A stretch of DNA of 63,040 nt, the filler included, from Anaerolineae bacterium (lineage in GTDB: Bacteria; Chloroflexota; Anaerolineae; B4-G1; DUEL01), in the NCBI GenBank assembly GCA_041082215.1. It is 5 parts of 5 records of this genome, joined end to end, with 100 filler letters (N's around TTAATTAATTAA, not from the genome) between each part and the next. Parts side by side here need not be neighbours in the genome. Positions count along the whole stretch, not along the records: positions 1 to 29,697 come from JBDOIF010000011.1; 4 more parts are not named here. One strand, given 5' to 3'. The notes beneath the pieces were generated by a model that saw only the letters and a list, made by a program, of their open reading frames with translations, made no database searches and was not told where the DNA came from. This document shows positions 387 through 29,797 of this stretch, piece after piece (position 1 is the first letter of the stretch; each line of letters starts with the position of its first letter). Position numbers and translations under genes: made by a program.

Positions 387-486
387 ATGGCCCCGCAGGG
401 CAGGACCTTAACAACTGAAGAGTGGTAGGTAAGGGACGTGGATCCGGGCCTACGTCAAGCACAACGGTCTAAGGACCGTAGTCCAC

Positions 487-1980
<1,494 letters not shown>

Positions 1981-2077
1981 AGGGAGAAAGGCCAAAGGCA
2001 CGGTTCGGGCCTGAGGCCAACACTTGGATCCGCGGACCTTCCTGCCACTCTTCAGTCGTTAAGGCCTGACCGAATGG

Positions 2078-2154
2078 GGGCCTGTAGCTCAGTCGGTTAG
2101 AGCACTCCTCTGATAAGGGAGTGGTCAGTGGTTCGAGTCCACTCAGGCCCACCA
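2078..2154 (+). tRNA. tRNA-Ile(GAT)
   Basis: Cloverleaf GGGCCTG...CAGGCCC-ACCA, anticodon loop CT-GAT-AA, located in the ITS. Confidence 0.97.
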
Positions 2155-2159
2155 GGTTC

Positions 2160-2232
2160 GGGGATGTAGCTCAGATGGGAGAGCGCCTCCCTTGCACGGA
2201 GGAGGTCAGGGGTTCGAATCCCCTCATCTCCA
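2160..2232 (+). tRNA. tRNA-Ala(TGC)
   Basis: GGGGATG acceptor with G3:U70, anticodon TT-TGC-type loop (CT-TGC-AC), GGTTCGAATCC; CCA not encoded. Confidence 0.96.
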
Positions 2233-2241
2233 CAGAGGCGC

Positions 2242-2270
2242 TTGACAGGAGCTGAGAACGAAGGTATACT
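2242..2270 (+). promoter_or_regulatory. Putative internal promoter in the ITS upstream of the 23S
   Basis: TTGACA (2242-2247), 17 bp, TATACT (2265-2270). Confidence 0.65.
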
Positions 2271-2520
2271 ATCCCCGTCGTGAGGTGCGTATCGGATGCG
2301 ATTGGCGTGCGAAGGAGCGGTAAACGAATAGCGGGTGCTCCGGCATATCTCGGAGGTAGGGGTACGGCCTGGGATATGCCAGGCCGTTACGTTTGAAAAG
2401 GGGGGTTGAAGGTTGGCCCCTGCGGCTCAAAGGGGCAGCAGCGGCCAGCGGTCAACCCGTTGGAACGGAAGAGCACCTTAACAGCTGAATAGGAGCGAGA
2501 ACTTCAATTTCTCCGCGTCA

Positions 2521-4565
<2,045 letters not shown>

Positions 4566-5244
4566 AGGACCAGGACGGCAGTCCTGGAAGGGCCGTTACA
4601 AAATCTGGCTATATGCTGGAACACCTGGAGTATCCCACACTACCGAGAAGGTGACAACGTGATGGGTGCAGGCAATCAGCAGGAAAGGCTGTCTCAGGAC
4701 GAACGATCCAGATGGTTTCTCGCTGGCCTCATTGAGGGTGAAGGGTCGGTCTGTGTCTCCATCAAAGCCCATCCAGGGGCCCGATTCGGCTACTACGTCG
4801 ATCCGGAGTTTTTCCTCTACCAGAAGCAAGAGGGAGTGGAACTGCTCCGGCTGGCTCAGCGGATCTTCGGCACAGGCCGGATATTCCCCAAGCCCGGCAA
4901 TGAGGATGTCCTGGTCTTCGCGATCACCGATCGGCGATCCCTCAGGGAAAAGGTCATCCCGTTTCTGCGACGGTATATGGCCCTTTCCCCCAGAAGGAAA
5001 ACCTATGAGATGTTCGCCGAGATCGTGGAGGCTATGGAGCGGAAAGAACACTGGACGCCCGAAGGGTTGGCACGCATCGTCGAGAAGGCGTATGCGATGA
5101 ATCCAACCACTAAAGGGAAGGAGCGGAAACAGAAGCTCAGCGAAGTCCTGAGCAGAATCCTCAGAGACCATACGCCAGACACTCCGGACGTGGTTCAGGG
5201 GTGAAGAGATGGTCCAGTCCCTATGGCGACATAGGGAGCAACTG
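4566..5244 (+). mobile_element. Group I intron in 23S rRNA at E. coli position 1923 (679 nt)
   Basis: Exon ends in U and the intron ends in G. P1: exon TAACGGT pairs with GCCGTTA (4592-4598), giving U.G at the splice site. Core motifs are P ATGCTGGAA, Q AATCAGCAGG, R TCAGAGACCAT and S AAGAGATGGTCC. Joined exons restore TAACTATAACGGTCCTAAGGTAGCGA. Confidence 0.96.
4662..5204 (+). CDS. Single-motif LAGLIDADG homing endonuclease (I-CeuI-like), 180 aa
   Basis: FLAGLIEGEG motif, then FGYYVDPEF, FGTGRI and DRRSLREKVIPF resembling I-CeuI; SD-like AAGGTGA 7 nt before ATG 4662. Confidence 0.93.
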   Translation: MGAGNQQERLSQDERSRWFLAGLIEGEGSVCVSIKAHPGARFGYYVDPEFFLYQKQEGVELLRLAQRIFGTGRIFPKPGNEDVLVFAITDRRSLREKVIPFLRRYMALSPRRKTYEMFAEIVEAMERKEHWTPEGLARIVEKAYAMNPTTKGKERKQKLSEVLSRILRDHTPDTPDVVQG

Positions 5245-6220
<976 letters not shown>

Positions 6221-6295
6221 TGGCGCGGAGAAATTGGAGTTTTCCTCCTATTCAGCTTTGTGCTCTTGGGCAGGCCATTGCGCCTGTCTTCAGGT

Positions 6296-6415
<120 letters not shown>

Positions 6416-29697: not shown

Positions 29698-29797
29698 NNN
29701 NNNNNNNNNNNNNNNNNNNNNNNNNNNNNNNNNNNNNNNNNTTAATTAATTAANNNNNNNNNNNNNNNNNNNNNNNNNNNNNNNNNNNNNNNNNNNN
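29698..29797. other. Artificial contig linker
   Basis: N-run, TTAATTAATTAA (stops in all frames), N-run. Confidence 0.98.

Follow-up and report, generated by a model that had tools for sequence, protein, structure and literature searches.

A P2-less group I intron with an I-CeuI-like endonuclease gene in the 23S rRNA gene of an Anaerolineae bacterium

The 23S ribosomal RNA (rRNA) gene of an Anaerolineae bacterium (assembly GCA_041082215.1) is interrupted at positions 4566-5244 of the 63,040-nucleotide stretch of DNA analysed here, which is called the window in the following. The insert very probably is a group I intron without helix P2 that lies behind U1923 of the 23S rRNA (site L1923) and carries the gene of a single-motif LAGLIDADG endonuclease of the I-CeuI lineage. 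Four lines of evidence support this reading: the position of the boundaries, a fold in which paired bases covary, the family and fold of the encoded protein, and a patchy distribution of related introns across phyla. An earlier note on this DNA, made from the sequence, had proposed an intact group I intron with U and G at its splice boundaries, the P1 pairing, the P/Q/R/S core and an open LAGLIDADG frame, and each of these elements was located.

Insertion site and ribozyme

The window opens with a complete rrn operon, as delineated with Rfam models. It comprises the 16S rRNA gene (487-1978), two transfer RNA genes between 16S and 23S (2078-2232), the 23S gene and the 5S gene (6298-6414). The bacterial large-subunit (LSU) rRNA model is matched completely (2521-6221, model positions 1-2925, 2708.9 bits), with a single large gap of 684 nucleotides (nt) at model positions of about 1955 to 1960. 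Read from the sequence, the insert is 679 nt long; the 5' exon ends with ...TAACTATAACGGT at 4565, the first inserted base is A, the last is G5244, and the 3' exon restarts with CCTAAGGTAGCGA at 5245. The boundary cannot slide because neither boundary base recurs on the opposite side. The sequence of helix 69 identifies the last base of the 5' exon, U4565, as the equivalent of E. coli U1923. The joined exons are the 26-bp recognition sequence of I-CeuI as printed within primer CeuF (PMC2790883), as the earlier note had stated. That L1923 is the site of the I-CeuI intron in plastids, also claimed there, agrees with the wording "n.1923 LSU target site" in PMC3315327.

Both the 23S gene and the insert occur once in the assembly (174 contigs, 96% complete), from which it follows that the rRNA must come from the interrupted gene. 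Splicing is strongly implied, since the sole 23S gene found is interrupted and the split region is invariant in the exons of the relatives. Without the intron the 23S gene measures 3022 nt compared with the 2925 positions of the model, which leaves about 97 further bases inserted elsewhere in the gene. Positions 1-29697 of the window correspond to contig C87 of the assembly; the runs of N begin at 29698.

The fold of the insert is that of a group I ribozyme with helices P1 and P3 to P9 and a pseudoknot formed by P3 and P7. In P1 the exon bases AACGGU (4560-4565) pair with GCCGUU (4592-4597), with a wobble pair U4565-G4592 that is kept in 35 of 35 related introns; the remaining P1 pairs are kept as well. 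The P, Q, R and S strands correspond to P4 5' (4615-4619), P4 3' (4676-4680), P7 5' (5166-5172) and P7 3' (5208-5214). Helix P2 is absent, as read from the structure, with only 6 nt between P1 and P3. P7, which crosses P3 as a pseudoknot, presumably is the guanosine-binding helix. The elements of the intron and its exon flanks are as follows; the covariation counts are explained below.

4553-4565 (+): 5' exon half of the 26-bp homing site, from the sequence and comparison with the primer in PMC2790883
4560-4565 (+): exon strand of P1, AACGGU; U4565 is the 5' splice site
4566-5244 (+): group I intron, 679 nt, 56.4% guanine plus cytosine (G+C), from boundaries, fold and composition
4570-4587 (+): hairpin of 7 bp with loop GGCA that extends the P1 loop, read from the sequence; the alignment is gappy here
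4589-4597 (+): internal guide sequence, with GCCGUU (4592-4597) as P1 strand
4589-4591 with 5245-5247 (+): putative P10, AGG with CCU, read from the sequence; weak in relatives such as locus L003
4604-4609 (+): P3 5' strand, with 5174-5179; both-side changes in 4 of 6 pairs, 98.6% of cells pair
4615-4619 (+): P4 5' strand (P), with 4676-4680 (Q); 100% of cells pair, nearly invariant
4624-4627 (+): P5 5' strand, with 4669-4672; 4 of 4 pairs covary; MAFFT shifts G4627/G4628 of the window by one column
4634-4666 (+): P5a/P5b arm as a whole, from the covariation count
4634-4640 with 4659-4666 (+): P5a, A4662 bulged; 7 of 7 pairs covary, 99.6% of cells pair
4641-4644 with 4650-4653 (+): P5b, loop GAGAA; 100% of cells pair
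4681-4684 (+): P6 5' strand, with 5158-5161, its loop being the body of the reading frame; pairing in 100% of cells, covariation in 1 of 4 pairs
5166-5172 (+): P7 5' strand (R), with 5208-5214 (S); 2 of 7 pairs covary, 89% of cells pair, 6 of 7 pairs formed in the window
5180-5203 (+): P8 hairpin, 5180-5185 with 5198-5203; covariation in each of the 4 outer pairs
5218-5237 (+): P9 hairpin of 8 bp, GCGA tetraloop 5226-5229; 6 of 8 pairs covary
5244 (+): terminal guanosine (omega-G) at the 3' splice site; 62 of 64 complete L1923 introns end with G
5245-5257 (+): 3' exon half of the homing site, CCTAAGGTAGCGA, from the sequence and comparison with the primer in PMC2790883

For the covariation count the structure of the window intron was laid on an alignment of 35 distinct L1923 introns that carry an open reading frame (ORF). 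Counted were 55 pairs in 10 helices, with P7 entered as a pseudoknot, giving 1917 cells; the two inner pairs of P8 were left out because the alignment is unreliable there. Pairing was found in 95.8% of the cells compared with 84.2% after the letters of the 3' strands had been shuffled, and in just 31.9-43.5% when the partner was slid by 1 to 3 columns. Both sides change in 29 of the 55 pairs. The covariation score amounts to 0.419 versus 0.183 for shuffled alignments and was equalled by none of 500 shuffles. Covarying pairs occur in P3 (4/6), P5 (4/4), P5a (7/7), P8 (4/4 counted) and P9 (6/8); P4 and most of P1 and P6 are invariant, and these helices are therefore uninformative either way. The window intron makes all counted pairs except the last of P7, which is A-G.

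The same helices were obtained independently when RNAalifold was applied to 21 L1923 introns that lack an ORF. In this set P1, P3, P4, P5, P5a, P5b, P6, P6a, P8, P9, P9.1 and P9.2 are predicted, and 37 of 71 pairs show compensatory changes. Five of the 26 known ORF-less introns were not used, four on account of their length (L049, L050, L079, L095) and one that is AT-rich and poorly aligned (L086). Nawrocki, Jones and Eddy (2018) placed archaeal introns at LSU/1923 in class IB4 (PMC6125680), and Haugen et al. (2007) call the introns at L1917 and L1931 IC1-like without P2 (PMC1995217). We regard the window intron as probably of the P2-less type; the label IB4, if applied to it, is borrowed from PMC6125680 for the L1923 site.

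The endonuclease and its overlap with the ribozyme

Two features mark the gene and its start.

4662-5204 (+): homing endonuclease gene with one LAGLIDADG motif (LAGLIEGEG), supported by Pfam, Protein Data Bank (PDB) matches, structural model and homologues
4648-4653 (+): Shine-Dalgarno-like AAGGUG, 8 nt 5' of the ATG, in the loop and 3' strand of P5b

The frame runs from ATG 4662 to TGA 5204 and encodes 180 amino acids with no internal stop codon. Residues 20-122 match PF00961 (LAGLIDADG_1) in a single stretch with 47 bits (cut-off 23.1, E 5.3e-12), so that the frame named in the earlier note is indeed a LAGLIDADG gene. Across 20 homologues with 62-87% identity to the window protein, E25, G26, E27 and G28 of the motif are invariant, as are 47 further columns, and E27, by its position within the family, is presumed to be the catalytic acid. 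A search of the PDB with the single sequence retrieved I-CeuI (2ex5) in one stretch with 77.7 bits (E 1.1e-20) and the two domains of I-LtrWI (4lq0) with 65.5 and 56.5 bits. With a profile built from the 20 homologues the scores rose to 118.4 bits for I-CeuI (E 2.9e-33) and to 90.2 and 81.1 bits for the I-LtrWI domains; I-TnaI reached 89.8 bits and I-Vdi141I 87.5 bits. The top scores for whole chains belong to two-domain enzymes such as I-LtrWI; per domain, I-CeuI is the best match.

An AlphaFold model of the protein (predicted local distance difference test, pLDDT, 87.1; predicted template-modelling score, pTM, 0.80) displays an alpha-beta-beta-alpha-beta-beta-alpha core composed of helix 12-27, strands 28-36 and 44-55, helix 56-69, strands 73-77 and 80-88, and helix 91-105. 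When the model was searched with Foldseek, the top three matches were I-Vdi141I (3e54; 31% identity, template-modelling score, TM, 0.80), I-CeuI (34%, TM 0.79) and I-TnaI (29%), all with TM values of 0.79-0.80. The resemblance to I-CeuI pointed out in the earlier note was thereby confirmed both in sequence and in structure. I-CeuI and I-Vdi141I are described as homodimers (PMC3315327 for I-CeuI), the latter originating from an archaeal L1927 intron; I-TnaI, to judge from its name and the table of Haugen et al. (PMC1995217), probably belongs to the 23S intron of Thermotoga. In 23S genes without the intron, cutting by I-CeuI produces 3' overhangs of sequence CTAA (PMC2790883). From the single motif and the homodimeric relatives, the window protein is predicted to be a homodimer that cuts with 4-nt 3' overhangs. 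Encoded by an intron at L1923, it is a candidate isoschizomer of I-CeuI that would recognize the 26-bp site.

The third codon positions of the endonuclease gene have a G+C content of 0.685 compared with 0.724 in long ORFs of the host, and the intron contains 56.4% G+C compared with 60% in the exons. These values speak against an AT-rich donor from which the element arrived very recently.

The body of the gene occupies loop L6, and both of its ends overlap the core of the ribozyme, so that one sequence is subject to two constraints. The first 8 codons (MGAGNQQE) constitute the 3' strands of P5a, P5 and P4 and the 5' strand of P6. The last codons, about 16, run through P6', J6/7, P7, P3' and P8, and the TGA stop codon (5202-5204) lies in the 3' strand of P8. 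Because of this overlap, the N-terminal QQER and the C-terminal ILR..TPD are among the most conserved residues of the protein and are shared with introns at other sites. ORFs that extend into the core are also described for cyanobacterial introns at L1917, L1931 and L2593 (Haugen et al., PMC1995217). The start signals are likewise embedded in structure: the A of ATG 4662 is the bulged base of P5a, and a GAG(G/A)AGGU sequence precedes the start by 7-9 nt in 12 of the 35 aligned introns, namely in those with a short P5b. Folding of P5a and P5b probably hides the translation signals and, since these are buried in the arm, translation and ribozyme folding should compete.

The following sequence of events is proposed. 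The intron would be transcribed within the rrn operon, and the guide at 4592-4597 would pair with the last six exon bases, so that the U-G wobble comes to lie at the splice site. Free guanosine would be bound by the P3-P9 core with its P3/P7 pseudoknot and would attack the 5' splice site; G5244 would next occupy the same pocket, upon which the exons would be joined and the helix 69-71 region restored. The endonuclease would be translated from ATG 4662 behind the ribosome-binding site AAGGUG. As a homodimer it would cleave the 26-bp site, which the intron splits, in 23S genes that have no intron, and repair from an intron-carrying copy would spread the element. Splicing, translation, dimerization, cleavage specificity and present-day mobility are thus expected from the architecture of the element and from its relatives, and the wording "probably functional" of the earlier note is likewise an expectation.

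Distribution, sequencing runs and alternative explanations

Relatives of the intron were collected with a protein-guided scan of species genomes, which yielded 13 loci (loci are designated by L and three digits), and with a pattern scan of metagenomes for the exon end followed by the P3/J3-4/P4 motif, which yielded at least 120 stretches. Among the 120 metagenome stretches listed, at least 56 contain complete L1923 introns, 23 are L1923-like in a stretch without the 3' exon, and 41 are L1931 introns, in which the 8 exon bases CCTAAGGT come first. Together with the window and seven genome loci, 64 complete L1923 introns are available. The opinion of the earlier note that rRNA group I introns are uncommon in bacteria is too cautious in view of the at least 56 further complete L1923 introns in metagenomes and of a 2024 survey of the Candidate Phyla Radiation (CPR), in which 45% of the 968 insertions in 23S genes of these bacteria contain group I introns (PMC11270868). 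The two complete L1923 introns that do not end with G are identical (L005:2906-3582 and L044, from a Caldisericota metagenome-assembled genome, MAG). They end with A, although the core and a 183-residue frame look intact; either the 3' splice site has shifted or the ribozyme is impaired.

Of 1025 candidates, 880 are homologues of the endonuclease at E <= 1e-5. Those most similar to the window protein are 89%, 82% and 74% identical, and the first two are full length. Named homologues come from Acetothermia (72% and 67%) and WOR-3 (69%). The same intron at L1923 is present in titled genome loci of an unclassified bacterium (66%), Caldisericota (57%) and Actinomycetota (56-57% and 38%). L009 (Saccharibacteria, 48%) is a member of the L1923 clade whose 5' end is cut off. 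L004, titled "archaeon FK5.bin12", is identical to L003, titled bacterium, in the intron and the printed 23S flanks; its 4.9-kb contig probably was misbinned into an archaeal genome. In a sample of 400 genomes of the host phylum, the L1923 intron was not found with the 5' junction pattern (0/400). Endonuclease relatives were present in 23 of the 400 genomes, none more than 36% identical. When their break points were compared with the window exons, none was at L1923; they lie mostly at L1931, and also at L1917, at about L1951, at L2593 and at two further sites. The uninterrupted 26-base site occurs in at least 102 of the 400 genomes, a lower bound as many lack an assembled 23S gene. The distribution is thus patchy, with the nearest named relatives in other phyla (Acetothermia, WOR-3, Caldisericota and Actinomycetota).

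Insertions at neighbouring sites can occur together. In a Solirubrobacterales MAG (L008:2890-3700) the L1923 intron is followed by the 8 exon bases CCTAAGGT and then by an L1931 insertion with its own LAGLIDADG gene, which would amount to two group I introns separated by an 8-nt micro-exon. In one 23S gene from the phylum of the window (L161, G002:C346:46873-50316), a span of about 35 exon bases accommodates three insertions with endonuclease genes, located behind GTAACTAT (L1917), CCTAAGGT (L1931) and GGGTAAGT (about L1949).

The proteins were related to their insertion sites on a quickly built maximum-likelihood tree, which comprises 95 distinct endonuclease domains. The site labels require 12 changes on the tree compared with a mean of 46.4 for shuffled labels, and 12 was reached by none of 200 shuffles. 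The window protein falls into a clade of 8 (96% in the Shimodaira-Hasegawa-like approximate likelihood-ratio test, SH-aLRT), all at L1923, which is nested in a clade of 18 (98% SH-aLRT) with 17 members at L1923 and one, L059, at L1931. In all, L1923 is occupied by at least three endonuclease lineages. The L059 intron (metagenome contig, minus strand, about 1157-1876) lies at L1931 and encodes an endonuclease that scores 275 bits against the profile of the L1923 family; site and endonuclease lineage are therefore not strictly tied, and L059 may represent a switch between overlapping target sites 8 bp apart. Three automatic site labels proved wrong: "L1923" for L137/L163 arose from a chance motif inside a third intron of genome G002, L057 really is an L1931 intron with a variant exon, and the label "L1923" of L011 belongs to a second ORF that is weak and sits on a long branch.

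Public sequencing runs provide evidence for the junctions. The best DNA matches to the stretch are runs labelled hot springs metagenome (shares of 0.53-0.86, two studies), and four runs were examined, all as assembled contigs. DNA contigs of run X1 cover 4536-5090 and 5061-5295 with no differences, and a DNA contig of run X3 covers 4537-5090 with 2 differences. As X1 spans both junctions and X3 the 5' one, both junctions are real in DNA.

Several observations weigh against the reading of the insert as a P2-less intron with an I-CeuI-type enzyme. The only RNA-library contig on the intron (X9; 4633-5102, 1 difference) falls short of both junctions and may be DNA carry-over. The exon-exon joint 4565>5245 is present in all four runs with sides of just 18-24 nt of universal 23S sequence. 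The depths of this joint (414-3029) far exceed those on the intron (18-44), and with universal sides such joints cannot be assigned to the host; they indicate neither splicing nor an intron-less allele and probably stem from intron-less genes or rRNA of other organisms. The Rfam group I model (RF00028) scores 30.3 bits (E 1e-5), below its gathering score of 50, and its 5' half is misplaced into the ORF. A search of this kind had been advised in the earlier note. In the 3' half of the model, J6/7, P7, P3', P8, J8/7, P7' and P9 are aligned with high posterior probability. With the true 5' half about 490 nt further upstream, the model has to place its own 5' half inside the ORF, and we attribute the sub-threshold score to the generic model rather than to the intron. 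The clade of the window furthermore lacks the P9.1 and P9.2 arms of most relatives, which could weaken self-folding. The window protein shares just 34% identity with I-CeuI and aligns from about residue 43-48 of the I-CeuI chain onwards, whose N-terminal part consequently is without counterpart in the window protein. Finally, a single rrn copy offers no empty site for homing, and the endonuclease may be idle or decaying.

The low Rfam score, together with the frequent misassembly of rRNA operons in metagenome-built genomes, would suit an assembly or binning artefact, and inserts of other kinds could also interrupt the gene, such as a bulge-helix-bulge intron of the archaeal type or a spacer that RNase III excises with the rRNA ends left unjoined. 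We consider all of these most improbable. The junctions are carried by the DNA contigs of X1 and X3, even though the best match may be the source sample, and the covariation fits a group I fold including the pseudoknot between boundaries with U and omega-G. On account of these boundaries and the covariation, the RNase III spacer and the bulge-helix-bulge intron were rejected. The helix 69-71 region, moreover, cannot stay broken without loss of a conserved part of the ribosome.

Could the element be a fixed passenger late in the homing cycle, whose RNA still splices while the endonuclease is inactive or drifting? Among the 64 complete L1923 introns, 26 are without an ORF (252-381 nt), which implies repeated loss of the gene, and 38 have one (660-801 nt). 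The single copy in the genome would agree with such a late stage, as would an X3 DNA contig that joins 4690 to 5154, skipping the 463 nt of the endonuclease gene body. This joint may derive from an ORF-less relative in the same community; its side measures 25 nt only. All 38 ORF-carrying introns, by contrast, have open frames of at least 173 residues. The frame in the window is intact over 180 codons, the motif and 47 columns are invariant at 62-87% identity, the two closest homologues are full length, and the G+C content at third positions, near that of the host, fits a long-resident gene. Decay of the endonuclease therefore appears improbable.

A further explanation retains a living ribozyme and assigns to the endonuclease, no longer mobile, mainly the role of a maturase that aids a pared-down intron at high temperature. 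According to a review, Thermotoga neapolitana encodes in its 23S intron a LAGLIDADG protein whose maturase-like activity makes the intron more stable when hot (PMC3984707). Among the fold matches of the window protein I-TnaI ranks third, and the runs with the best DNA matches are labelled hot springs metagenome. Of 61 distinct complete L1923 introns, 12 lack the P9.1/P9.2 arms (the window and 11 others) and all 12 carry an ORF, whereas the arms are retained in 26 of 26 ORF-less introns. The single rrn copy, which provides no internal target, points in the same direction. Yet the link between the ORF and the missing arms follows lineages and does not reflect independent events, and the invariant E27 suggests that cleavage is still under selection. 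Since the two roles can coexist, a maturase function would add to the homing endonuclease reading more than replace it; as the main role of the protein we think it rather unlikely. Tentatively, and with as little confidence, one may imagine that in the arm-less L1923 clade the ribozyme needs its own protein as a maturase at high temperature and that ribozyme folding gates the translation of this protein, which would be thermostable with an I-CeuI-like specificity. If this were true, the element would be more than a selfish passenger, namely a small unit in which RNA and protein feed back on each other.

Comparison with known systems

In the sources examined, site L1923 is named only for plastids (PMC3315327) and archaea (PMC6125680). 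Among bacterial sources, Haugen et al. (2007) list L1917 and L1931 in their Table 1 and speak of four bacterial rDNA positions (PMC1995217); position 1923 is nowhere named in that paper, and "1923" does not occur in a 2014 review (PMC3984707). The sites frequently occupied by introns with LAGLIDADG_1 genes in the CPR survey are 1917, 1931, 1952, 2593, 2604 and 2657, compared with 1923 in the window. Site 1923 is absent from the main text of the survey, and 1922, 1923 and 1924 from one of its supplementary files; other tables may list rarer sites (PMC11270868). Bacterial L1923 introns are thus not named in the open literature searched, a scope that mostly leaves subscription journals and rRNA intron databases outside. 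The window intron belongs to a known and widespread family, of which it is a well-preserved representative, and occupies a site unlisted in the bacterial sources examined.

L1923 thereby joins the 23S sites that are occupied by endonuclease-carrying group I introns in bacteria. Its occupancy is common in environmental DNA and extends across several phyla, which fits horizontal transfer into a universally conserved target. The homologues supply hundreds of natural variants of an enzyme presumably directed to the I-CeuI site, some of them from hot springs metagenome runs. The general understanding of such elements is unchanged by the finding.

The bacterial introns described by Haugen et al. resemble that of the window in the absence of P2, in a complex P5 arm, in single-motif LAGLIDADG genes of 143-181 amino acids and in ORFs reaching from a peripheral loop into the core (PMC1995217). 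Related endonucleases are found in the L1917, L1931 and L2593 introns of Synechococcus sp. C9 and S. lividus C1, Thermotoga (I-TnaI, 5gkk) and Simkania. The ribozyme cores at L1917, L1931, L2593 and L1923 are alike, whereas the window endonuclease belongs to a separate clade linked to L1923. Many CPR introns likewise are of group I with LAGLIDADG_1 genes and are located in the 3' half of the 23S gene (PMC11270868). The archaeal IB4 introns at LSU/1923 and LSU/1931 (PMC6125680) share the ribozyme family, and those at LSU/1923 the site, but differ in the domain of the host; in the archaeal loci L012-L014 (L1931) the core motifs and the placement of the start codon are as in the window.

The closest counterpart with a characterized enzyme is Ce.LSU.5 with I-CeuI from the chloroplast of Chlamydomonas eugametos/moewusii. 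Both introns are inserted at the same site within an identical 26-bp sequence, and both encode single-motif LAGLIDADG proteins, of 180 residues in the window compared with a 207-residue chain in I-CeuI (2ex5), in a bacterium in one case and in a plastid in the other. The earlier note had pictured the intron as shared between bacteria and organelles. This holds only for the site and for the lineage of the endonuclease; a recent exchange is not borne out by proteins that have diverged to 34% identity.

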